Source: Minisyncoccia bacterium
GTDB lineage: Bacteria; Patescibacteriota; Minisyncoccia; Phycocordibacterales; UBA9973
Length of the DNA: 48,797 nt
Direction: 5' to 3'
Assembly (NCBI GenBank): GCA_038244685.1
Contig: JBBRTD010000004.1
Location: 1 to 48,797, forward strand
Shown: one piece after another, positions 4,330 to 48,151 of the stretch
How the letters are laid out: each line of letters begins with the position of its first letter
How positions within the stretch are numbered: position 1 is the first letter of the stretch
Notes under the pieces: model-generated
What the model was told of the DNA's origin: nothing
What the model saw: only the letters and a program-made list of their open reading frames with translations
The model's database searches: none
Made by a program: the position numbers and the translations under genes

Positions 4330-5418
4330 CTACAAACCTTCTTCTTTAAGCTTCTCTATTATTTCCTTTGTTTTACGAGATAATTTATTTGGCATTTCTA
4401 CTTCAATGCTAATTATAATATCTCCACGGCCACGATTAGATGGCACTCCTTTGCCCTTAACTCGAAGCATTTCTCCATTATTAATACCTTCTGGTATTTT
4501 AACTTCTATTGATTTACCGTCTAATGTTTTTAAATTATAAGTCATTCCAAGAAGTGCATCTGTTAACTTTATTTTTAAATCCATCAATAAATTCTGGTCA
4601 TCTCGAGTGTAGATAGGATGTGATTTAACATTCATCTTTATATATAAATCCCCAGTTTCGCCCCCTTGTATGGCTTCTCCACTACCTCTAACTCGAAGAG
4701 ACTCTCCGTTATTAATTCCTGAAGGAATATTTATACTTATATCTTCATTAATTTTACGAACACCAGCTCCATGACATTCACTACATTTTTCAGATGGAAT
4801 TTTTCCAGTACCGAAACAGTTATCACACGCTCTGACTGTTTGAAAATTACCCAAGATTGAATGTCTAACTTCACGAACTTGTCCTTGTCCGTCACACGTC
4901 TTGCAAGTATTCATTTTAGCTCCTGGTTTACTACCAGAGCCACCACAAATATTACATGACGATTGTTTGTTTATTGTTACTTTTTTAACAGTTCCAAAAA
5001 TAGATTCTTCAAAAGATAAATTTATCTCTGTTGATATATCCCTACCTTTTTTTGTTTTTTGTTTGCGTCCACCGCCGAAGAAATCTCCAAAAATATCTCC
5101 TAAATCACCCATATCAAATTCCATTCCACCATTTTGACCAGTGAAATCAAAACCACCAAATCCACCTTGGCCTCCAAAACCACCACCCTGTCCACCAAAT
5201 CCTTGTGGTCCATCAGCATTTCCAAAGCGATCATAAGAAGATCTTTTTTTATCATCAGAAAGTACCTGATAAGCTTCATTTACTTCTTTAAACTTAGTAT
5301 CATCACCATTATTTTTGTCTGGATGATGAGTATGAGCAAGCTTATGAAAAGCCTTCTTCATTTCTTCTTTTGAAGCATTTTTATCTACTCCTAATATTTT
5401 GTAATAATCTTTGGGCAT
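4330..5418 (-). CDS. dnaJ: chaperone DnaJ
   Basis: J-domain with HPD (HHPDKN), a G/F-rich linker and four CxxCxGxG zinc-finger repeats. Confidence 0.96.
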
Positions 5419-5437
5419 AATTTATTTAATCTAATAT

Positions 5438-5550
5438 AAAATTTCAAAATAGTCTTTGAGAAATGCCTTGCGCAGGGCGTCGGCCCGAGCAGAGCAAATT
5501 TTCAGCAGAAAATTATGTGTGCATTTCAAGAAGAGCTATTTTGAAATTTT
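5438..5550. repeat. GC-rich structured module, subfamily 1, copy A, inside a long AT-rich hairpin in the dnaK-dnaJ spacer
   Basis: The outer imperfect inverted repeat is 5438-5466 / 5521-5550. The core 5467-5520 is cttgcgcagggcgtcggcccgagcagagcaaattttcagcagaaaattatgtgtgc. It is homologous to the cores at 41847-41907 and 42934-42995. Confidence 0.8.
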
Positions 5551-5563
5551 ATATGATTATTAT

Positions 5564-7511: not shown

Positions 7512-7566
7512 AGTATACACTTCCATTTATATTTTGACAAGTATTTAGCGACCGCAAAATACTTGT
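7512..7566 (-). promoter_or_regulatory. candidate dnaK promoter overlapped by a perfect 10-bp inverted repeat (operator candidate)
   Basis: On the minus strand, TTGTCA (7535-7540) is followed by a 17-nt spacer and then TATACT (7512-7517). The inverted repeat acaagtattt (7537-7546) / aaatacttgt (7557-7566) has a 10-nt spacer and covers the -35 box. Confidence 0.55.
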
Positions 7567-7597: not shown

Positions 7598-8155
7598 ATG
7601 TTAAAAAAGCCTTCAATTCAAAAGGCAATCCTAAAAATCCTTTCAAATAAAGGGGTTACTCCTGTCGAATCAATTAAAAAACACGTCAATGACGCTGTTT
7701 TAGCTGAGCCTGAGGCTCTTAACAAGAGAAGTTATGCTATTTCTCGTTCAATTAAGAATATGCTTGGAGATGGTCTTGTAGAAGCCCTTAATTCTGACAA
7801 CAAACAATATATAAGACTTACAAAAGAAGGAAAACAAAAATTAAACAACATTGCACTTGAATGCGAATCAAGCCTTGTTTCAACATCTTGGGATAATTAT
7901 TGGAGAATAATACTTTTAGATATTCCAGAAGATAGAAAAAATGAAAGAGAGGCATTGCGATATCTACTTAAGAAAGCAGGATTTGTATGTTTAAAAAATT
8001 CTGTTTGGATTTCCATGTACCCTTTTGAACATTTATTTACAAATATTAAAAAAGATTTAAATTTATCAACAGAATTAATAATTATAGTAACAGATAAAAT
8101 AGACGAGGAAACAGAAAAAGAATTTTTATTACTATGTGAATCTAGTTATAAATAA
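7598..8155 (+). CDS. PaaX-like winged-helix transcriptional regulator (short form)
   Basis: 185 aa. The N-terminal wHTH-like segment is ILKILSNKGVTPVESI. It is followed by WRIILLDIPEDRKNEREALRYLLKKAGFVCLKNSVWIS, which matches the PaaX-family pattern (W..v.f..PE..R..R..Lr..L...GF..l..gvWi.P). Two TGTATAAT extended -10 boxes lie upstream at 7564-7571 and 7583-7590. Confidence 0.6.
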   Translation: MLKKPSIQKAILKILSNKGVTPVESIKKHVNDAVLAEPEALNKRSYAISRSIKNMLGDGLVEALNSDNKQYIRLTKEGKQKLNNIALECESSLVSTSWDNYWRIILLDIPEDRKNEREALRYLLKKAGFVCLKNSVWISMYPFEHLFTNIKKDLNLSTELIIIVTDKIDEETEKEFLLLCESSYK

Positions 8156-8180
8156 AAAATAGAGCGATGCTCTATTTTTT
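8154..8180. terminator. bidirectional intrinsic terminator
   Basis: The stem tagagc (8160-8165) pairs with gctcta (8169-8174). An A-run lies upstream and a T-run downstream. Confidence 0.75.
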
Positions 8181-8189
8181 ATTTATATA

Positions 8190-11100
8190 CTATTGTTTTA
8201 ATTCTGATATTATTTCTTGATCAGGACTAGAGACTTCTACATCTGAAACTATGTCCTTAGGTAATGGCAATACTTCAAATTCTGAACCTATTTTTTTATC
8301 TGTAGGTGTTTCTTCAGGGGTGACACCATTGTTACTCGGTTGCAATAGAAGATTTGTTGAATCAATATTTGTAACAGCAGGAACAAGTGGTGTTACAATT
8401 TGAGGATTAGAAACATTCGGTACTTCGTTTAATATTACTTTCTCTTCACCGCACTTCCCTTTTTGTTTATTAAATTCCCCATTAGTTATTAATACACAAT
8501 ATGATTCACCTGTTACACTATCTTTCATCTCTATACCTTCCGTTATAACAGTTTTTACAAATATTTTATCAATTCTATTGTATTCATCTTCCAAGAAGCT
8601 TTTTATTAAATATCCTAAAGATGTAGACTTGGTTGTATCTAATGATGATAAATCTTTAATATTCAAATTCATCTCCTGAATTGCTTTAACTAAATAAGGA
8701 GTAATATTTGCATAACTAATTGATTTAAGTTTTAATCCTGTTGTTGGATCAATATTAATATCTGTGGAAACTAAATCTGGAAATATTTGTTCCATTTCTT
8801 GAGCTATGAAACCTACATGCTTAGCATCACCATTATTTTCATTATTCCAATTATAGACTACTGGAGTAAGATAACTTAATTTATCTAAGGTAGACTTATT
8901 ACTTGTATCAAGCATATTATTTAAAATAAATTCTTTTCCTTCTAATGTTAAAATATTCTTTTTTAAATTTATATCTGATGAACAAGTAAGTGATGTAGTA
9001 ATTGGATTTATATCACAGTAACCGGTACTACTTCTAAAGCGAGCAACAACACCAGAAACTGTATTGTTCCCTACTTCAAGTAAATAACCTGGTGAAGATA
9101 CCCCAATTCCAACTTTACCAGCATAATATGAATTTGATAATGAACCAGAATATATTGCAAATTTTGTAGTACCAACATCAATTGATGACCCTAAGTATAT
9201 TCCATATGAAGTATTTATTGTACCTGCATTTGACCAAACATCTCCTGGTCCTCCTAGGGAAAGACCGTAAATAGTGCCTATTGTAGAACCAGCAGCATTT
9301 GCAACTGACGAGCTATAATTTTTTGCTGTTGTAATAGTACCACCACCTGAATTAATTATATTACTAAAACTTCCCCAAGCATTTGAAACCAGACCTGTCG
9401 AAGTATTTTTAATTCCAGCATCAATTCCATATGCAGTAGTAATAGTACCAACTCCAAAATTTTCTGTATATGACTGAGTTGCTCTTGAGTCTGTAATTAA
9501 TCCATTCCCTTCATTATCCACATAATTACCCGAACCAATAGCAGAACCAATAGTTCCACCTGCATAATTATCTACTAGTGCATCAATTGCTCTTCCTCGA
9601 GTTATCGTTCCCCCGGCATCATTATAAACATAACTTCCAGTACCTAATCCTTGGGTTATTGTTCCATTTGAGAATAAATCAACCGATGACTGTGACCCTG
9701 TCGCTTGATCTAAAATTCCAGTTCCATAATCTGAAATCATAGATTGAGATCCCTTAATATTTCCAACCATATCACTTGCATTCGTTGCAGGTATCTCTAT
9801 TGCCCCTATCATTCCATATTTATTTGTAGTAATTGGTCCATTCAATAATAAATATGCAGCTGCGCCAGTATTTTTATTTCCAGCATCAGCTCCTATTGTT
9901 TGAGATGAAACTAAGTTTGGAATATATGTCGTACCATCTATTAAAGATAAAGTTCCAGCGATTGCATTATTTCCAGTCGCAACATTACCAGTATTAAAAT
10001 TAATATTACTACCTGATGTAGTCCACTGAGAACTTACCCCTGGCACTGTCCAAGTTAACAATCCGTTTCCATTATTAGACAAAATAGTACCTACACCTCC
10101 TTGAATTGAAGGCAGCGAATAATCAACTCCTCTTAGTTGCATTTCTGTAATAGAAGGAGCTAGCATAAACTGATTAGCCTTGTTGTTTGAAATTTGAGAA
10201 TTAAAAACTCCACTTCCAAGTAAAATAGAATTTGAATGACCTCCCGTATTAATAAATGAACCAATGAGAATAGACGATAGCCCGTTTGAAGTATTATCAA
10301 CTGTATCATTGTAACCAGCTTCACGTCCAATAAAAATAGAGTTAGCTGCATTAGTTGCTAAATAGCCAGTATTATAACCAATAAAGTTTGATCCTTGAGC
10401 ATTTGTTGATCTATAACCAGAGTAAGATCCAATAAAATTTGAGTTCATCGCATTCGTTGCCTGAGCACCAGAACCTTGCCCAAAAAAGTTTGAACTCGAA
10501 GCATTTGTCGCAGAATTTCCTGCATTATTACCAATAAAATTTGAATATGAAGCACTAAAGGCAGAATCACCAGCACTAAAACCGAGGAATGTAGAACCAT
10601 GTGTCGAAGTTACTCCATTACCAGCTTGGTTAGAAGAATTTGAAAAAAGATTTGTATTATTAACTAAATCAATAGTTGATTGCTGATCTAACTGATAACG
10701 AGCTCCTCCATTTATAGCAGAAAAATATAAATGTGAACCATCATATTCAACAGCACCAGCTTCAGATGTTCCTAATTTTGGACCACTGGTAAATTTAAGT
10801 GGAGCCGTACCTGCTGTTGCAGTACCAGCTTTTAAATTAAGTACCGCTGTTGGATTTATAATTCCAAGACCCATATTCCCAGCAAAATAATTTTGACCAC
10901 CCGCAGAATATAATGAATAATTTAGAGTTGCACCTTGAGATTGATTTTCAATATACAAACCATAATCATTTGAAATAGTTCCAGCAACTGGCCCATCAAT
11001 ATAGGTACCATAATAATTTGTTGTATTTCCACCAGTAATAGAATCCGCACGAGCCCATAAGTTTATAACCTTAGCAACAGTTCCATTGGTAACAGTTGGG

Positions 11101-12674
11101 CGACCCATAATTGCATTAAAGAAATTTGTAACTGATGCTCCTACATTATTTATCATCGGAACCCCTTCTATCCCATACATTGCATTTATTGATATAGGAG
11201 TAGAAATAGAAGATAAACTATATACACCTCCAACTGAACCAGTTGTATTCTGCTCACCATATCCACCGAAAATACCAGCAACAATTGAAGAATTTGCACC
11301 GCTGGTTGCAAGATGAGCTTCAATATTATCACCATAATAATTACTTGAAACTGAACCAGTATAAGTTCTTGCTCCGGAAATCATAGAGCGACTTTGTTGT
11401 GGAATCACACTCCAAACATTAATTCCAGAATTTGTATTTATCATTCCATTTATATCTAAAGTAAAGCCAGGAGTTGTTGTCCCTATTCCTACTCTATGGT
11501 TTACGCTATCAACAAATAAAGAATTTGTATCAACCGTTAAATTATGAATGCCTAAATCAACATTTGAAGTTGCTCCTGTGTAAGGTATACCACTAGATGA
11601 AGGAGTAGACCAAGACAAAACACCACTTCCATTATTTGTAAGAACGGTATTTACACTACCTTGAGATAATGGCAGTGAATAATCTATTCCCCTCAATCTC
11701 ATTTCTGTAATAGAAGGAACTAACATAAATTGATTAATTTTTGTGTTTGAAATTGGGGCACCAGATATACCACTACCAAGTAAAATTGAATTCGAAAAAC
11801 CTCCTGTATTTGTAAATGAGCCCAAAAGAATTGAAGAAAGTCCATTAGAAGTATTGTCTACAGTATCACCATTTCCAGCATTTTGACCAATAAATATTGA
11901 ATTGGCAGCATGCTGCGCATTAAAACCAGCATTATTACCAAAGAAATTTGAATTAGAAGCATAAATTGCATTGCGACCAGCAAAATAACCAAAGAAGTTT
12001 GAATTCTCTGCAATTAAAGCTTGATAACCAGCATACGAACCAAAGAAGTTTGAATTTGAAGTCAATAAAGTATTATAGCCAGTATAAACACCAAAGAAAT
12101 TTGAACCAATAGATTCAGCCACATTCCGACCAGCCCCTAGACCAATAAAATTTGAATTAGAAAGATCACCTGTTGAATTTTCACCAGCATATGGGCCAAG
12201 AAAAATAGAATTTGTTGTACTTACTGTTACCCCCGAAGCTGTTCCAGGTAATCCAGTAGAGAAAAGATTTGATGAATTAACAATTGAGATTGGAGAAACA
12301 GATGCCATTGTCCAACTAGGGGCAAGATTTGTGCCATTAGACGTAAGAACTTGTCCTGCTATTCCATTAGGAAGTTTATCTGTTGTGTCAGAGCTAGACT
12401 GATAAAGTATTTGCCCTCCTAACCCCCCTGCTATATTTGCAGCTGTTCCAGTAGTATTTTGATTAAAGATTGGAAAGCTTGTTAATTGAGATGCTGAACC
12501 TGTGGGTGTTAAAAAGTTAAAAGCAACAGTGCAACCAGTATCTAAAGGAGCGCAGTTTGGATCTATTGTCTGACCAGGAGTAAACAAAGCAAAAATCTTG
12601 GCATATGCGCCAAAAAGTAGAACAAAAAATAATATTGCTAGAAATTTAATTAATATCGAATTTGAATATTTCAT
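8190..12674 (-). CDS. giant secreted tail-fibre-like surface protein with an internal duplication and a C-terminal-region S74-type intramolecular chaperone domain
   Basis: 1494 aa. The N-terminal hydrophobic signal or anchor is ILIKFLAILFFVLLFGAYA. It carries SNFFG/SNFIG-xxAG repeat arrays, VGIGxxxP collar motifs (three copies) and GGTIT-type repeats. The segment SDINLKKNI...HVGFIAQEMEQIFPDLV resembles the endosialidase chaperone domain. Confidence 0.85.
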   Translation of the reverse strand: MKYSNSILIKFLAILFFVLLFGAYAKIFALFTPGQTIDPNCAPLDTGCTVAFNFLTPTGSASQLTSFPIFNQNTTGTAANIAGGLGGQILYQSSSDTTDKLPNGIAGQVLTSNGTNLAPSWTMASVSPISIVNSSNLFSTGLPGTASGVTVSTTNSIFLGPYAGENSTGDLSNSNFIGLGAGRNVAESIGSNFFGVYTGYNTLLTSNSNFFGSYAGYQALIAENSNFFGYFAGRNAIYASNSNFFGNNAGFNAQHAANSIFIGQNAGNGDTVDNTSNGLSSILLGSFTNTGGFSNSILLGSGISGAPISNTKINQFMLVPSITEMRLRGIDYSLPLSQGSVNTVLTNNGSGVLSWSTPSSSGIPYTGATSNVDLGIHNLTVDTNSLFVDSVNHRVGIGTTTPGFTLDINGMINTNSGINVWSVIPQQSRSMISGARTYTGSVSSNYYGDNIEAHLATSGANSSIVAGIFGGYGEQNTTGSVGGVYSLSSISTPISINAMYGIEGVPMINNVGASVTNFFNAIMGRPTVTNGTVAKVINLWARADSITGGNTTNYYGTYIDGPVAGTISNDYGLYIENQSQGATLNYSLYSAGGQNYFAGNMGLGIINPTAVLNLKAGTATAGTAPLKFTSGPKLGTSEAGAVEYDGSHLYFSAINGGARYQLDQQSTIDLVNNTNLFSNSSNQAGNGVTSTHGSTFLGFSAGDSAFSASYSNFIGNNAGNSATNASSSNFFGQGSGAQATNAMNSNFIGSYSGYRSTNAQGSNFIGYNTGYLATNAANSIFIGREAGYNDTVDNTSNGLSSILIGSFINTGGHSNSILLGSGVFNSQISNNKANQFMLAPSITEMQLRGVDYSLPSIQGGVGTILSNNGNGLLTWTVPGVSSQWTTSGSNINFNTGNVATGNNAIAGTLSLIDGTTYIPNLVSSQTIGADAGNKNTGAAAYLLLNGPITTNKYGMIGAIEIPATNASDMVGNIKGSQSMISDYGTGILDQATGSQSSVDLFSNGTITQGLGTGSYVYNDAGGTITRGRAIDALVDNYAGGTIGSAIGSGNYVDNEGNGLITDSRATQSYTENFGVGTITTAYGIDAGIKNTSTGLVSNAWGSFSNIINSGGGTITTAKNYSSSVANAAGSTIGTIYGLSLGGPGDVWSNAGTINTSYGIYLGSSIDVGTTKFAIYSGSLSNSYYAGKVGIGVSSPGYLLEVGNNTVSGVVARFRSSTGYCDINPITTSLTCSSDINLKKNILTLEGKEFILNNMLDTSNKSTLDKLSYLTPVVYNWNNENNGDAKHVGFIAQEMEQIFPDLVSTDINIDPTTGLKLKSISYANITPYLVKAIQEMNLNIKDLSSLDTTKSTSLGYLIKSFLEDEYNRIDKIFVKTVITEGIEMKDSVTGESYCVLITNGEFNKQKGKCGEEKVILNEVPNVSNPQIVTPLVPAVTNIDSTNLLLQPSNNGVTPEETPTDKKIGSEFEVLPLPKDIVSDVEVSSPDQEIISELKQ
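8655..8978 (-). other. Peptidase_S74-like intramolecular chaperone / autoproteolysis domain within the giant ORF (aa 1233-1340)
   Basis: The segment reads SDINLKKNILTLEG...LSYLTPVVYNWNNENNGDAKHVGFIAQEMEQIFPDLVSTD...ISYANITPYLVKAIQEMN. This follows the SDxxxK...GfiAQE...P..V pattern of endosialidase and tail-spike chaperone domains. Confidence 0.7.
10047..10673 (-). repeat. intragenic protein-level repeat, copy 2 (aa 668-876 of the giant ORF)
   Basis: See copy 1. The nucleotide sequences differ at many synonymous positions, so the duplication is old. Confidence 0.9.
11607..12284 (-). repeat. intragenic protein-level repeat, copy 1 (aa 131-356 of the giant ORF)
   Basis: It aligns without register change to aa 668-876, exactly 520 aa downstream. 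Example: DTVDNTSNGLSSILLGSFTNTGGFSNSILLGSG versus DTVDNTSNGLSSILIGSFINTGGHSNSILLGSG. Confidence 0.9.
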
Positions 12675-31247: not shown

Positions 31248-31366
31248 ATTATTAATTAAATGTTGTCCCTAATGGGTGAAAAATAAAATCGCCCTAGGGC
31301 GTTATGCTTAATACTGTATCATACTTTTTAGAATTTGTAAACAAAAGCCCAAATACCTATATATTT

Positions 31367-31405
31367 ACAGAGGTTTAACCTCAAATTATGAGATTAAACC
31401 TCTGT
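31367..31405 (-). terminator. 12-bp stem hairpin downstream of rseP
   Basis: The stem acagaggtttaa (31367-31378) pairs with ttaaacctctgt (31394-31405). Confidence 0.55.
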
Positions 31406-31417
31406 AATAGGCCAAAT

Positions 31418-32560: not shown

Positions 32561-32600
32561 AAATAAATAGCCCCAAACAAAAGTTTAGGGCTATTTATTT
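32561..32600 (-). terminator. intrinsic terminator after frr
   Basis: The stem aaataaatagccc (32561-32573) pairs with gggctatttattt (32588-32600). Confidence 0.7.
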
Positions 32601-38887: not shown

Positions 38888-39274
38888 ATGATAGAGACAG
38901 AATTCTGTACAATTACAAATACAACAAAAGGCAAGCCCCCACGCTTGCCTTTTGTCTATATGAAAGAGGCCGTCTTAGGTAAAAAGTATGAATTAGGTGT
39001 CAGCTTCCTCTCCCCTAAAAAACAAAAAGAGATAAATCTAAAATATAGATCTATAAATAAAACAACAAATATTTTATCTTTCCCTTTAACTAAAACATCC
39101 GGTGATATCACTTTTGATTTAGCAAAAGTAAAACGAGATGCGCCACTTTTTGATATGTCATATCCAAAATTTCTGAAGTATTTATTTATACACGGCCTCT
39201 TGCATTTGAAAGGATTCGATCATAGTAGTATAATGGAAAAACAAGAACAAAAATTTCTTAAAATGTTTTCGTAA
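38888..39274 (+). CDS. ybeY: rRNA maturation endoribonuclease YbeY
   Basis: It has the HGLLHLKGFDH zinc motif. I start it at the ATG at 38888, since the track start at 38876 is a TTG inside the rpsU terminator hairpin. Confidence 0.88.
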   Translation: MIETEFCTITNTTKGKPPRLPFVYMKEAVLGKKYELGVSFLSPKKQKEINLKYRSINKTTNILSFPLTKTSGDITFDLAKVKRDAPLFDMSYPKFLKYLFIHGLLHLKGFDHSSIMEKQEQKFLKMFS

Positions 39275-40604: not shown

Positions 40605-41795
40605 ATGCCTAAAATCAATCCAGACATAGAATCATTTGCGAGAATTAAAGTTATCGGTATTGGCGGTTCAGGCAAAAACGCCTTAAACCATATGATAGCT
40701 TCGAAAGTTAAGGGTGTCGAATTCATAGTAATGAATACTGATACTCAAGACTTACACAACTCCTTAGCCGAAAAGAAGGTGCATCTTGGTAAGAACTTAA
40801 CTAAAGGCTTAGGTGCTGGTATGAATCCAGAAATAGGTCGCCGTGCAGCAGAAGAAACTAAAGCTGAAATTCAAGATGTTATCAAAGGAGCCGACATGGT
40901 CTTTATTGCTTGTGGTATGGGTGGTGGTACCGGTACAGGTGCTGCTCCTATTGTTGCTCAAGCTGCTAAAGAACAAGGCATCCTAACTGTAGCCGTAGTA
41001 ACAAAGCCATTTTCATTTGAAGGAAATCAACGTATGAAATTAGCAGAAATGGGTCTTTCTGAACTTGAACGTGAAGTAGATGCTATTCTTGTAATTCCAA
41101 ACGACAGACTTATTGTTATTTCAGGTAAAGACGTAGGCTTTAGACAAGCTTTCGCTTTGTGTGATGAAGTACTTAAACAAGCAGTAGAAGGCATATCAGA
41201 GCTTATTACAACTCCTGGTATGATAAATGTAGACTTTGCTGATATTAAGGCTGTTATGTCTGATGCAGGAAGTGCATTAATGGGAGTAGGTATAGCCGCT
41301 GGAGAAGGCAGAGCTGAGAAAGCAGCCCTTCAAGCTATTAATTCCCCTCTTCTTGATCTTTCTATTTCTGGAGCCAAAGGAGTTCTCTTTGCAATTTCGG
41401 GTGGTGACGATTTAACTATTCATGAAATTCAAGAAGCAGCTAAGGTTATTACAGAATCTATCGACAAAGAAGCTAAGGTTATATTCGGAACTATCAGTGA
41501 TGATAAACTTAAAAAAGGTGAGATGAAAGTAACAGTTATTGCTACTGGATTCCCTACCGATATGCCAAAGCGTTCACTATTTCAAATCCATCAAAAGTCA
41601 GTTGAATCAACAGTGGCTACTTCTACAAAAGAAGAAGTTATCCAAGCAGTAAACAATAAAGATTCAATTAAAGATAATTCATCAGAATACATAAAGAAAA
41701 ACGACAAAGTAGAAAAAGTAGAAGATGATCTATTCATAGACGATACCGATGATTGGAGTACGGTTCCAGCATTTTTAAGAAGAAATAAGAAGTAA
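40605..41795 (+). CDS. ftsZ: cell division protein FtsZ
   Basis: It has GIGGSGKNA, the GGGTGTGAAP tubulin signature, and a C-terminal DDWSTVPAFLRR peptide. Confidence 0.98.
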   Translation: MPKINPDIESFARIKVIGIGGSGKNALNHMIASKVKGVEFIVMNTDTQDLHNSLAEKKVHLGKNLTKGLGAGMNPEIGRRAAEETKAEIQDVIKGADMVFIACGMGGGTGTGAAPIVAQAAKEQGILTVAVVTKPFSFEGNQRMKLAEMGLSELEREVDAILVIPNDRLIVISGKDVGFRQAFALCDEVLKQAVEGISELITTPGMINVDFADIKAVMSDAGSALMGVGIAAGEGRAEKAALQAINSPLLDLSISGAKGVLFAISGGDDLTIHEIQEAAKVITESIDKEAKVIFGTISDDKLKKGEMKVTVIATGFPTDMPKRSLFQIHQKSVESTVATSTKEEVIQAVNNKDSIKDNSSEYIKKNDKVEKVEDDLFIDDTDDWSTVPAFLRRNKK

Positions 41796-41817
41796 AAAAA
41801 TTCTAAATAAGATAAAT

Positions 41818-41933
41818 AAAACCCTAAATAATTTTTATCAAAGGGGCATGCGCAAGGCCGATGGGCCGAGCAATGAGGAAATTTTCAACAGAAAATTATC
41901 CGGACCCTTTGAAAAAATATTATTTAGGGTTTT
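41818..41933. repeat. GC-rich structured module, subfamily 1, copy B, at the apex of a long AT-rich hairpin (ftsZ-trxB spacer)
   Basis: The outer arm aaaaccctaaataatttttatcaaaggg pairs with ccctttgaaaaaatattatttagggtttt. The core 41847-41907 is catgcgcaaggccgatgggccgagcaatgaggaaattttcaacagaaaattatccgga. Confidence 0.85.
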
Positions 41934-41975
41934 ATTATTTTGTATATTTTAATATTTTAGTATAAAATAACTAAC

Positions 41976-42902
41976 ATGTACGATTTAATTATATTAGGTG
42001 GAGGACCTGCCGGTAGTGCCGCTGCGGTCTACTCTGCCCGCAAACAACTTAAAGGAGCTATCATAACCAGTGAATTTGGTGGTCAATCTATGGTCTCAGA
42101 GCTTATCTATAACTGGATTGGAACTCCAGAGATTTCTGGTATGGACCTTGCTTCTAATTTAAAAAAACATGTCCAATATTATAAAGGACCCTATTTAGAT
42201 ATAATCGAAGGAGAAAAAATAACCTCGATTATTAAAAATGAAAATATATTTACGGTTAAATCAGAAACAGGCAAAGAATTTACTTCCAAAACAATTCTGA
42301 TCTCAACCGGCAGTGGAAGAAGAAAACTCGAAGCTATTAATGCCGACAAGTATGAGCACAAAGGAATTACTTATTGTGCTTCATGTGATGGACCGATGTT
42401 TGATGGCCAAGATGTTATTGTTGTCGGTGGTGGGAATGCAGCCTTTGAGTCAGCGGCTCAACTTCTAGCCTATTGCAAAAGTGTTACATTAATCCACAGA
42501 AGAGATACATTCAGAGCAGACGAAATTACAGTTAAAAAATTACTTGAAAATCCTAAATTTAAAACAATAGTTAATGCCGAGATAATAAGAGTTGATGGAG
42601 AACAATTTGTAAATTCCCTTACCTATAAAGATAAATTATCAGGAGAAGAACATACAATCAATTCCAATGGAATATTTGTAGAAATAGGACAAATCCCTAA
42701 TATTGAATTCGCAAAAGACATTGTTAAGATAGATACAAATGGCAAGATTATTGTCGATCCTATGACTCAAACAACTTCAAATGAAGGTATCTGGGCTGCT
42801 GGAGATTGCACAAATGGAAGATATCATCAGAATAATATAGCTGTTGGAGATGCCGTTAAGGCATTGGAAGATATATACCTTTGGATACAAAAGAATAAAT
42901 AG
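41976..42902 (+). CDS. trxB: thioredoxin-disulfide reductase
   Basis: It has GGGPAGSAAA, the CASCDG redox centre, and GGGNAAFE. Confidence 0.94.
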   Translation: MYDLIILGGGPAGSAAAVYSARKQLKGAIITSEFGGQSMVSELIYNWIGTPEISGMDLASNLKKHVQYYKGPYLDIIEGEKITSIIKNENIFTVKSETGKEFTSKTILISTGSGRRKLEAINADKYEHKGITYCASCDGPMFDGQDVIVVGGGNAAFESAAQLLAYCKSVTLIHRRDTFRADEITVKKLLENPKFKTIVNAEIIRVDGEQFVNSLTYKDKLSGEEHTINSNGIFVEIGQIPNIEFAKDIVKIDTNGKIIVDPMTQTTSNEGIWAAGDCTNGRYHQNNIAVGDAVKALEDIYLWIQKNK

Positions 42903-42903
42903 A

Positions 42904-43018
42904 AAAAAACCTTAATTAATTATTATCGAGGGGCGTGCGCAAGACCGACGGGCCGAGCAATGAGGAAATTTCTAGCAAGAAATTATCCGGACCCGAGATA
43001 AAATTAATTAAGGTTTTT
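42904..43018. repeat. GC-rich structured module, subfamily 1, copy C, filling the whole trxB / nucleotidyltransferase convergent spacer
   Basis: The outer arm aaaaaccttaattaattattatcgaggg pairs with cccgagataaaattaattaaggttttt. The 65-nt core is 57/65 identical to copy B. Confidence 0.85.
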
Positions 43019-43778
43019 AGTTACTCTGATTATCTAAAATTTCTTCAAGAATTTCAAGTTCGGCTTTCGTATTTGGTTGAAATATTTCCATCATATTAGA
43101 AACTGGAATAGCTTTTATCTTATGACCTCCTTCTTGAGCTATTTTTACCAAATCAGTAATGTAATATTCTCCTTGAGCATTTAAATTTTTTAATTTATCT
43201 ATATTATTCCAAAGCCACTTTGCATCAAAAGCATAGATAGCTGGATTAATTTCTTTAATTTTTCTTTCTTCTTCTGTCGCATCTTTATGTTCAGTAATTT
43301 TTATGACTTCGCCATTTTCGTCACGAATTATTCTACCAAGGAAATAGGCTCCAGCTCTCCAGTCTTCAAAATCAGGTAGCACTACTGTCCCCATTGTTAT
43401 GACTGATTTTTCTTTATTATATGCATCAATAACATCATTTATTGTTTCCTTTGAAATTAATGGTTGGTCTGCCGAAACAACAAAAACCATTTCATGGTCA
43501 GGATGAACAGAATTCTTGGCAGACAAAACAGCATGACCAGTTCCTAGTTGTTCTTCTTGATGAGCATAATTATAACCTCTTCCTATAACATCGAAAATTC
43601 TTTCCTTTTTATAACCGACAACAATAACAGGATCAATCGGTAAATTTATAAATGATAAAGTATCTAAAATATGTCTTAAAAATGGTTTACCCTTAAGCAT
43701 AGCAAGAGCTTTGGGCTCGTCTGTTCCCATTCTTTTACCCTTTCCTGCAGCTAAAATTATTATTTGTGTTTTTTTCAT
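43017..43778 (-). CDS. sugar-1-phosphate nucleotidyltransferase (GlmU N-terminal-domain-like, no LbH acetyltransferase domain)
   Basis: 253 aa with [19 protein letters not shown] and YYITD motifs. Confidence 0.78.
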
Positions 43779-43796
43779 ATGAATTAAATAAATATA

Positions 43797-43948
43797 AACG
43801 ACGAGTGTTTTATATACAGGATTCTCGCCCTACGGTCGCTGGTATTTTTCGGCCTCATAAATTCGGCAACGAAAAATCTTTCGACTCCTGTGCGCAAATG
43901 AAGAAGTTCATTTGCTATCGCTCGTAAAAATTACATGAGTAATTTTTG
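43797..43948. other. GC-enriched, hairpin-dense spacer (candidate structured RNA or divergent module) between tRNA-Val and the nucleotidyltransferase gene
   Basis: A perfect 9-bp hairpin is formed by gcaaatgaa (43893-43901) / ttcatttgc (43906-43914). A second hairpin is atttttcg (43844-43851) / cgaaaaat (43870-43877). Possible closing helices are acgag/ctcgt and cagga/tcctg. The segment tcgactcctgtgcgca (43881-43896) is an inverted near-copy of the tRNA-Val 3' end. Confidence 0.45.
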
Positions 43949-44021
43949 TGCGCGATACAGGAGTCGAACCTGTGACCTACCCCACGTCAAGGGGTCGCTC
44001 TACCAACTGAGCTAACCGCGC
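43949..44021 (-). tRNA. tRNA-Val (anticodon GAC)
   Basis: A manual cloverleaf fits GCGCGGT/ATCGCGC acceptor, GCTC/GAGC D-stem, ACCCC-TTGACGT-GGGGT anticodon arm and ACAGG-TTCGACT-CCTGT T-arm. It is 73 nt and CCA is not encoded. Confidence 0.9.
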
Positions 44022-46012: not shown

Positions 46013-46065
46013 CAAAAGCGCGAATTCAAAAAGACTGGACTTCTCCAGTCTTTTTCGCTTTTGTG
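46011..46065 (+). terminator. compound hairpin and terminator immediately 3' of tRNA-Glu
   Basis: The outer helix is cacaaaagcg (46011-46020) / cgcttttgtg (46056-46065). The inner helix is aagactgga (46031-46039) / tccagtctt (46044-46052) with a T-run. Confidence 0.75.
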
Positions 46066-46068
46066 AAA

Positions 46069-46120
46069 GCGCAGGCATAATTTTTCAGTAGAAAAATTGC
46101 CGAGCTGGGGTCGCGAACAC
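46069..46120. repeat. GC-rich structured module, subfamily 2, copy D
   Basis: The sequence is gcgcaggcataatttttcagtagaaaaattgccgagctggggtcgcgaacac. About 40 of 55 positions are identical to copy E. Confidence 0.8.
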
Positions 46121-46305
46121 TTACATATTTTATGAGTAATCGAAATAAAATATTTAGTGATTTGTGACCTCCAGTGACCTTTAATTTAATGACAAATAAG
46201 TGTATTCACGATCCCAATAGGGTCATGGAAAAATTATATTAAAAAAACCATATTAATCTCTTAATATGGTTTTTTAAACATTAAATACAGAACAATTTAC
46301 ACCAA

Positions 46306-48000: not shown

Positions 48001-48010
48001 AACTTTTTAG

Positions 48011-48068
48011 AAGTACATACATAATTTTTCGGTAGAAAAATCACCGAGCTGAAATCGCGAGTACTTAC
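48011..48068. repeat. GC-rich structured module, subfamily 2, copy E
   Basis: The sequence is aagtacatacataatttttcggtagaaaaatcaccgagctgaaatcgcgagtacttac. The closing helix is aagtac/gtactt. Confidence 0.8.
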
Positions 48069-48151
48069 GCAAAAGCTGAGTATCTAAAAAAAATTATTAA
48101 TATGTAACATATATAATAACGTTACATGCCGTGCTATATCATCATATTATT

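Follow-up and report, generated by a model that had tools for sequence, protein, structure and literature searches.

Three-way-junction hairpins on either side of trxB belong to an apparently undescribed family of intergenic elements in Parcubacteria

The question raised by a contig of a Minisyncoccia bacterium (GenBank assembly GCA_038244685.1, contig JBBRTD010000004.1; its 48,797 nt are hereafter called the window) is what two closely similar, GC-rich modules are doing on either side of the trxB gene. A preliminary description, made from the sequence alone, noticed these modules, copies B and C, together with a third copy, A, and offered three explanations, namely elaborate bidirectional terminators with a ligand- or protein-binding apex, a terminator-targeting element resembling a miniature inverted-repeat transposable element (MITE), or recombination sites that would make trxB a cassette. 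The analysis described here places all three copies in a family of hairpin elements that is apparently undescribed so far and that we read, with evenly balanced confidence, as a mobile structured element similar to MITEs and to repetitive extragenic palindromic (REP) sequences, which is tolerated by the host or used by it as a boundary hairpin.

Copy B (41815–41936, plus strand) follows the ftsZ stop (41795) and precedes the trxB start (41976). Copy C (42905–43018, plus strand) starts 2 nt past the trxB stop codon (TAG, 42900–42902) and fills the convergent spacer between trxB and a minus-strand NTP-transferase gene, whose stop codon (43017–43019) it overlaps by 2 nt. In both, a core of 65 nt (41843–41907 in B, 42930–42994 in C) is carried by an AT-rich stem of ~28 bp, and the cores, with a GC content of 54–57% against 33% for the window, agree at 57 of 65 positions in a base-by-base comparison; the window has two occurrences of a 20-mer taken from the core, and 100 shuffles have none. 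The eight mismatches fall at core positions 6, 15, 20, 43, 44, 46, 49 and 50. Four of them (43/44 and 49/50) form two compensatory swaps in an apical hairpin, P3, which reads AAAUUUUC-AACA-GAAAAUU in B and AAAUUUCU-AGCA-AGAAAUU in C, and a fifth (46) is within the loop of that hairpin. These observations had been made in the preliminary description and were reproduced, as was the covariation of the second apical hairpin, P2, which is GGCC-GAUG-GGCC in B and GGGC-GUCG-GCCC in A. The latter copy (5434–5554, plus strand) is situated inside the dnaK–dnaJ spacer, antisense to both genes (identified by Pfam), and the earlier placement of the modules at gene 3′ ends has to be corrected for it, as it lies at no simple 3′ end.

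The three copies have a common fold, already attributed to B and C, in which a long stem, P1, closes a three-way junction with P2 and P3 at its apex. In P2 a GCA(A)/GA internal loop separates a UGC/GCA helix from a 4-bp GC helix, which ends in a tetraloop; P3 is an A/U-rich helix of 10 bp that has a bulged A and is closed by an ANNA tetraloop. Minimum-free-energy folds reach −52.6 kcal/mol for B (z = −8.6), −38.9 for C (z = −5.2) and −49.9 for A (z = −8.4), and none of 200 shuffles was as stable. Along B, as judged from sequence, fold and alignment, the AT-rich 5′ arm of P1 (41815–41845, preceded by an A-tract) is followed by P2 (41847–41875, with the UGC/GCA helix, a conserved GCAA/GA internal loop and the GC hairpin given above), by P3 (41877–41901, with a GGA/UCC base, the bulged A, an AAUUUUC/GAAAAUU helix and the AACA loop), and by the 3′ arm of P1 (41905–41936), which contains a −35-like hexamer (TTGAAA, 41909–41914) and leads into UUUUAUUAUUUU. 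In C, P2 (42934–42962) has a single A–C mismatch in its GACC/GGCC helix and P3 (42964–42988) carries both swaps relative to B; in A, the arms of P1 (5434–5466 and 5520–5554) enclose P2 (5468–5491) and P3 (5493–5517).

A degenerate pattern built from copies A, B and C and run on 185,579 species genomes matched 93 stretches, nearly all in genomes titled Patescibacteria or Parcubacteria, with the full architecture present in about 86 of them. The titles include Nomura-, Zambryski-, Vogel-, Yonath-, Kaiser- and Taylorbacteria as well as RAAC4_OD1_1, which at NCBI are separate candidate phyla within the Parcubacteria group; the handful of matches in Pseudomonas, Rhodobacteraceae and similar taxa, where the structure is absent, are ascribed to chance. 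With so few strict matches the distribution has to be called patchy, and several matches sit at contig ends, as expected of repeats that break assemblies. A covariance model trained on the 86 copies, a kind of search that the preliminary description had proposed for copies A–C, was then run on the window and on 686 kb of loci fetched around the pattern matches in those genomes (designated by L-numbers), and found 117 copies in the fetched loci. In the window, A scores 98.5 and 100 bits, B 84.7 and 84.0 bits and C 69.4 and 68.8 bits, the next-best match having 18 bits, and these three are the only members there. The elements are non-coding and about 76–186 nt long (median 119), with an apical three-way junction of roughly 60 nt and a P1 that is irregular in many copies. 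At least four core subtypes can be told apart, A belonging to subtype 1 and B and C to subtype 2; within a subtype the conserved part of the stem comprises the inner 17–20 bp, and the outer arms are copy-specific. In Nomurabacteria ELA275 (L078, 1–8000) six copies are crowded into 8 kb; nearly all the spacers in the series rplK, efp, recA, a small gene, ftsK and the gene after it contain the element, and two neighbouring copies in opposite orientations share one divergent spacer. The copies of this locus also show extra conserved outer features, 5′ (G)GCGUAU and 3′ AGGAGCC, flanking a 3×3 loop.

The earlier statement that the motif belongs to no named RNA family was borne out for the window, the modules and the related loci searched. 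At the gathering threshold, Rfam 15 returned only three tRNAs for the whole window; under permissive settings the region 41700–43150 gave only chance-level microRNA and CopA matches (E about 1–9), and in 18 related loci with more than 35 copies only tRNA and large-subunit (LSU) rRNA were found. A literature search, which included literal sequence strings, turned up nothing relevant to the element, nothing in viral contigs matched the strict pattern, and phage and plasmid collections gave no blastn match to copy A. Readings as a kink-turn in the P2 loop and as hammerhead, signal recognition particle, 5S or tRNA-like RNA were dismissed on inspection of the consensus; as regards the hammerhead and other three-way-junction ribozymes, the junction strands are C/CU, GA(G) and GUG/CGGA, and no Rfam match appeared at E up to 10.

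Compensatory change maintains the fold of the family, and this fold belongs to one strand. That structure and not only sequence is conserved had been proposed from the three copies, and the alignment of the 117 copies, with shuffles and with pairing partners slid by 1–3 columns as controls, agrees with this: standard pairs occupy 95.4% of cells compared with 71.4% in shuffles, none of 500 of which reached the observed value, both-sided changes are present in 27 of 28 pairs, and the covariation score is 0.61 as against at most 0.13 for the slid controls. It has to be noted that intrastrand template switching can also yield paired changes in palindromic DNA, so that covariation of the stem, by itself, does not prove that selection acts on an RNA. 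A folded single strand is better supported by the conserved unpaired bases and the strand asymmetries. Conservation is 82–100% at the unpaired positions, whether in the internal loop of P2, in the strands of the junction, in the loop of P3 or at the bulge. When P1 is folded with G–U pairs forbidden, tandem GA/GA loops number 30 and TC/TC loops 1, and single mismatches comprise 31 G:T against 10 A:C (p = 0.0015); the pair at the base of P3 is G·U in 45 of the 117 copies, and the sense strand folds ~3.8 kcal/mol better than its complement. This advantage is seen in 27 of 29 copies that are antisense to co-directional flanking genes, in 16 of 17 sense copies and in 20 of 23 copies in convergent or divergent spacers, and since the preference is equal whatever the direction of the neighbours, the selected strand is not simply that of the neighbouring mRNA.

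Two direct copies enclosing a single gene, each a strand-specific hairpin-forming site as known for attC, would at first sight suit attC-like or similar recombination sites that make trxB a mobile gene cassette. Comparison with relatives speaks against this, because the ftsA–ftsZ–trxB synteny is conserved in L072, L033 and L080. The upstream copy is common to these three loci and the downstream copy is found only in L072; in L033 and L080 a plain hairpin alone follows trxB, and the downstream copy of L072 (3611–3771, minus strand) is expanded to 161 nt by about 70 nt of extra hairpins between P2 and P3 and has the orientation opposite to that of C. Moreover, the element adjoins many unrelated housekeeping genes (dnaK, dnaJ, ftsZ, recA, atpD and efp among them) in mixed orientations, integrases are absent from the most frequent Pfam families of the flanking open reading frames (ORFs) sampled, and no GTTRRRY-type core sites were seen on inspection, no pattern search having been run. 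An exact look-up of TrxB for strain-level polymorphism returned one 1.7-kb contig, identical to the window. For this window the idea of trxB as a mobile cassette is thereby removed, recombination sites of this type being scarcely conceivable here, and the element is not a trxB-specific device.

The conserved synteny, together with the plain hairpins that orthologous sites carry in relatives, instead implies that B and C mark two ordinary transcript boundaries, each of which happens to carry a member of the family. The window's ordinary intergenic hairpins (8143–8192, 31366–31407, 32561–32600, 38924–38955 and 46242–46275) have perfect and unusually long stems of 13–19 bp with A- and U-tract flanks, which are like the outer stems of B and C, and they are likely bidirectional terminators. 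With such terminators (cf. 8143–8192, 32561–32600 and 46242–46275) B and C share the A-tract, the long stem, the U-tract and the position at transcript ends; they differ in that the loop is replaced by a conserved branched insert of 90 nt. U-rich tails are seen on inspection at A, B and C, and a consensus terminator scanner found no site at any of the three, the loop being too large for it. We suppose that in this genome B and C stand in for the usual hairpins of bidirectional terminators and probably also work as such: transcription from ftsZ would stop at B, before the trxB promoter, C would terminate trxB as well as the NTP-transferase gene, and A, between dnaK and dnaJ, would be a hairpin within the operon. 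The 39 nt from B to the trxB start codon, 78% identical to L072, may be the promoter region of trxB.

What may hold for B and C does not, however, describe the family, and the bidirectional-terminator claim stands only in so far as these two copies look like the genome's ordinary A-tract, stem and U-tract hairpins. A U-tract (at least 6 U in 8 nt) follows the stem in 8 of 116 copies on the sense side and in 5 of 116 on the antisense side, and the elements are not restricted to the 3′ ends of transcription units, being found also in divergent spacers and, in L048 and L058, in the dnaK 5′ untranslated region (UTR). All copies inspected are intergenic. By naive ORF calls, on which all neighbour counts depend, the spacers are tandem in 46 cases, convergent in 13 and divergent in 10; 107 neighbouring genes are encoded opposite to the element and 77 on its own strand, with the 3′ end facing it in 102 cases and the 5′ end in 82. 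The flanking genes are diverse housekeeping genes, coding for DnaJ, DnaK, TrxB, RecA, RNase H, AtpD/AtpC, FtsZ, ComEC, release factors and EF-P, and the element recurs between dnaK and dnaJ, between atpD and atpC, and around recA. No positional enrichment of −10-like hexamers was observed on either side of the copies when sense and antisense were compared; a promoter role was rejected on this ground, isolated consensus matches in AT-rich flanks being uninformative, and a replication-strand hypothesis likewise proved uninformative, as the GC skew of the window merely tracks gene orientation. As a family, the elements are neither canonical terminators nor obvious independent genes.

The same counts bear on a riboswitch-like or otherwise ligand-sensing cis-regulatory RNA, for which the conserved three-way junction with its invariant unpaired bases could speak. 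The copies, many per genome and in both orientations, nevertheless show no consistent sense 5′-UTR position and no coherent gene set, and a closing stem of 25–35 bp leaves no room for an expression platform. The ligand-binding apex of the preliminary description is not retained, and we regard a sensor of this kind as very improbable.

An unlikely alternative, though one with substantial observations on its side, is that the copies are host cis-acting transcript-boundary elements (terminators, attenuators, 3′-end stabilisers or RNase III sites) whose apex binds a host RNA-binding protein, and which duplicate rarely and are kept by selection. Position and orientation are indeed conserved at several sites: the dnaK–dnaJ copy is present and antisense in 5 genomes, with DnaK identity down to 68%, 4 genomes carry a sense copy upstream of trxB, with FtsZ identity down to 60% and differing core subtypes, and the atpD–atpC copy is present in 3. 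The core of B is 89% identical to its orthologue in L072, a conservation like that of the first and second codon positions of trxB (89% together; third positions 55%), and the outer stem of B differs from that of L072 by three fully compensated pair changes and by no uncompensated one. In some lineages the stem carries conserved non-Watson–Crick motifs at fixed spacing, among them a GA/GA loop at a distance of 7 bp from the junction, a bulged purine, an AUAG/CUAU box and 3×3 loops. The resemblance of B and C to the plain terminator hairpins of the window would fit as well, and the stems are long enough for an RNase III substrate. Against these points stands the independence of the favoured strand from the direction of the flanking genes, as 27 of 29 antisense copies fold better on their own sense strand and the mRNA there carries the poorer one. 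The rarity of U-tracts, divergent spacers nearly as frequent as convergent ones, the patchy distribution among genomes, and independent gains at one site that differ in subtype and orientation are also difficult to reconcile with such a function.

The independent gains are found in the spacer between the gene of a PaaX-like regulator and dnaK, in which an operator-like palindrome and a promoter are common to the window, L048 and L058 (DnaK 89–93% identical). The site just downstream of the −10 box, in the dnaK 5′ UTR, is empty in the window, carries in L048 a sense copy with a degenerate subtype-1 core, and carries in L058 an antisense subtype-2 copy with arms different from those of L048; the differing subtypes, arms and orientations argue against one ancestral copy. 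L007 and L018 have a 123-bp hairpin in common, 89% identical including the outer arms, within 8-kb loci that are otherwise non-homologous, and among all pairs of 116 analysed copies only one pair shares outer arms. Neighbouring pairs in opposite orientations occur in L078, L074, L045 and L087. Degeneration is seen as well: the L048 dnaK–dnaJ copy (4648–4739, minus strand) has an intact stem and a degenerate core, with GCGCA changed to ACGGA and CCGAGCA to CCUAGUA.

A family that is multi-copy, non-coding, indifferent to orientation and context, gained and lost, and patchily distributed is best understood as a mobile structured element, and of the three explanations first offered the MITE-like one came closest, on account of the gains, losses and recurrence of copies. 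In the model proposed here the family would be mobile but non-autonomous and would spread as REP/REPIN, Correia, ERIC or bcr1 repeats do; the junction apex on the favoured strand, as RNA or single-stranded DNA, would serve as a handle for a protein acting in trans, by which the element is copied, moved or processed, and the stem would be kept perfect and extended into the flank by selection, by intrastrand template switching or by both. The targeting of terminators is a separate matter. Downstream of a decarboxylase gene the window has a plain 19-bp hairpin at the site where L048 has the element, but the arms of this orthologous pair are unrelated, and the dnaK 5′-UTR site, when empty, has no pre-existing hairpin; on the evidence of such sites, insertion into the loop of a pre-existing terminator is no more than a possibility.

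REP sequences, their mosaic assemblies (BIMEs) and REPINs resemble the present element in being extragenic, multi-copy and hairpin-forming, in occurring in both orientations and frequently as adjacent inverted pairs, and in having a strand-specific structure, which in REP is recognised single-stranded; the host tolerates them or uses them as hairpins at mRNA ends. They differ in being 20–40 nt long with conserved arms and a variable loop, whereas here a conserved apex of 60 nt tops a variable outer stem, a GTAG head is absent from the alignment, and no RAYT gene was seen in the sampled flanks. REP families are species-specific, whereas the present core is common to several candidate phyla. The Correia (CREE), ERIC/IRU and bcr1 repeats are likewise non-coding, intergenic and palindromic, with 100–160 bp, form long RNA hairpins that are co-transcribed with their neighbours, and have insertion polymorphism between relatives in common with the present element. 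RNase III cleaves the hairpins of Correia, which can also function as terminators or promoters, and compensatory changes are known from bcr1; none of these families, however, has a counterpart to the branched apex with invariant loops. As for MITEs in general, the present family agrees with them as multi-copy non-coding sequence of 100–400 bp with presence/absence polymorphism between relatives. It departs from classical MITEs, which have conserved terminal inverted repeats and target-site duplications, in that its outer arms are copy-specific, only the inner stem being conserved within a subtype, and in that no duplication was found.

The family differs from known repeats in its branched conserved apex on a variable stem, in having no recognisable target duplication or partner gene, and in a core shared across candidate phyla. 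Several observations weigh against a mobile element. No direct repeats indicative of a target-site duplication could be recognised at the boundaries, where the flanks are AT-rich and diverged. Among the 25 most frequent Pfam families of each set of flanking ORFs (177 ORFs) there is no transposase, integrase or reverse transcriptase, and the fetched loci contain neither a split nor an autonomous version of the element. The outer stems are unrelated between copies, unlike the conserved terminal repeats of classical MITEs, so that mobility requires the extra assumption of either fast compensatory turnover or template switching; for stems that are copy-specific and yet perfect, these two processes and insertion into pre-existing hairpins are the candidate explanations we infer. 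The core is nearly identical across several candidate phyla, and this conservation, like that relative to L072, would fit a host-functional RNA equally well. In L039, finally, three copies have GAGCGAG...CGAGCGG boxes that enclose a variable 18-bp segment of constant length, and such boxes outside the variable segment of the stem look more like a functional helix of a ribonucleoprotein (RNP) than like junk.

The strand-specific structure, whatever the neighbouring genes, also invites the view that the copies are a multi-copy family of independently transcribed small RNAs, in which the junction would be the core, binding a protein or acting catalytically, and the stem a helix that protects the RNA or serves in its processing. 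Very strong covariation, highly conserved unpaired bases and a core conserved over several candidate phyla would suit this view, which we nonetheless hold to be distinctly unlikely: −10-like hexamers are not enriched at a fixed upstream distance on the sense relative to the antisense side, U-tracts are rare, copies in either orientation sit between a promoter and a start codon, some neighbouring copies point in opposite directions, as many as six are packed into 8 kb, and degenerate copies remain at conserved sites, as at dnaK–dnaJ in L048.

It is also conceivable, albeit a long shot, that the family represents something new, either a single-strand-specific element whose T-shaped apex is read by a dedicated protein (an HUH/Y1-type nuclease or an RNA-binding enzyme) and whose stem is made from the flank by template switching, or a new class of amplified RNA, catalytic or acting as an RNP scaffold. 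No Y1-transposase family is among the most frequent Pfam families listed for the 177 flanking ORFs. A lead in this direction, and not more than a lead, is offered by the inverted terminal repeats (ITRs) of adeno-associated virus (AAV). These parvovirus terminal hairpins are T-shaped and bound by an HUH endonuclease. Like the present element they consist of a long stem and two small hairpins that make up a three-way junction, and their GAGC-type repeats may be compared with the GAGCGAG...CGAGCGG boxes of some lineages and with CCGAGCAGAGC in the core. They differ as the ends of single-stranded viral DNA genomes that exist in flip and flop isomers; the copies described here are chromosomal and interspersed, the orientation of their apex is fixed relative to the stem asymmetries, and no HUH gene has been identified.

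The genomes of Parcubacteria and other bacteria of the candidate phyla radiation (CPR) are tiny, contain very little in the way of repeats or non-coding sequence, and have few described non-coding RNAs. That a highly structured element, its core conserved like coding positions, can occupy most of the intergenic spacers in some of them is notable for that reason. Its conserved apex on a variable stem is the reverse of what is known from REP and MITE elements, and it offers a natural system in which the upkeep of long perfect stems can be studied. It is also a candidate handle for a partner protein or mobilisation mechanism. The covariance model offers a new and well-supported annotation tool for Parcubacteria genomes, and the element explains some contig breaks.

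Two further structures of the window have marginal scores of only 15–16 bits with the covariance model and are not counted as members. One is formed by the 3′ half and trailer of a minus-strand tRNA-Val gene (43875–43974, minus strand), which at 15.9 bits (E about 0.009, a rough value) and by its fold is a possible distant relative and is treated as a lead. The trailer (43875–43947, minus strand, within the region 43875–44021) ends in ACAGGAGUCGAA, an exact inverted copy of the T-loop and T-stem of its own tRNA; together with the 3′ strand of the acceptor and two inner hairpins it forms a three-way-junction hairpin, which is followed by AAAGAUUUUU, a U-tract. Four further tRNAs of the 45 in the fetched loci (in L017, L026, L038 and L063) have the same arrangement, each matching its own T-arm, and the tRNA-Val of L072, a close relative, has no trailer. 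If the family were the single-strand-specific element considered above, this trailer would illustrate how a stem is built from an inverted copy. The other structure is a 95-nt direct repeat (46060–46154 and 48004–48098, 71% identical), located directly after tRNA-Glu and its terminator and bracketing 1.9 kb with three ORFs that have no Pfam matches. Its first copy contains GCGCAGGC-[AAUUUUUCAGUAGAAAAAUU]-GCCGAGC, i.e. P2-like strings around a P3-like hairpin, and the repeat is perhaps related to the family in degenerate form, or else marks the ends of an island.

The palindrome between dnaK and the PaaX-like regulator gene (7598–8155) is located at 7512–7566 in the minus sense, reads ACAAGTATTTAGCGACCGCAAAATACTTGT, and is a near-perfect 30-bp palindrome with two central mismatches that is conserved in L048 and L058. 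It overlaps a TTGTCA/GTATACT promoter and is probably the operator of the dnaK promoter, differing from the classical CIRCE sequence. Beyond the regulator gene, an ORF of 1494 aa (8190–12674, minus strand) contains periodic repeats of 51 nt (17 aa) and a C-terminal Peptidase_S74 (endosialidase chaperone) domain, which suggests a fibre-like or tailspike-like surface protein.

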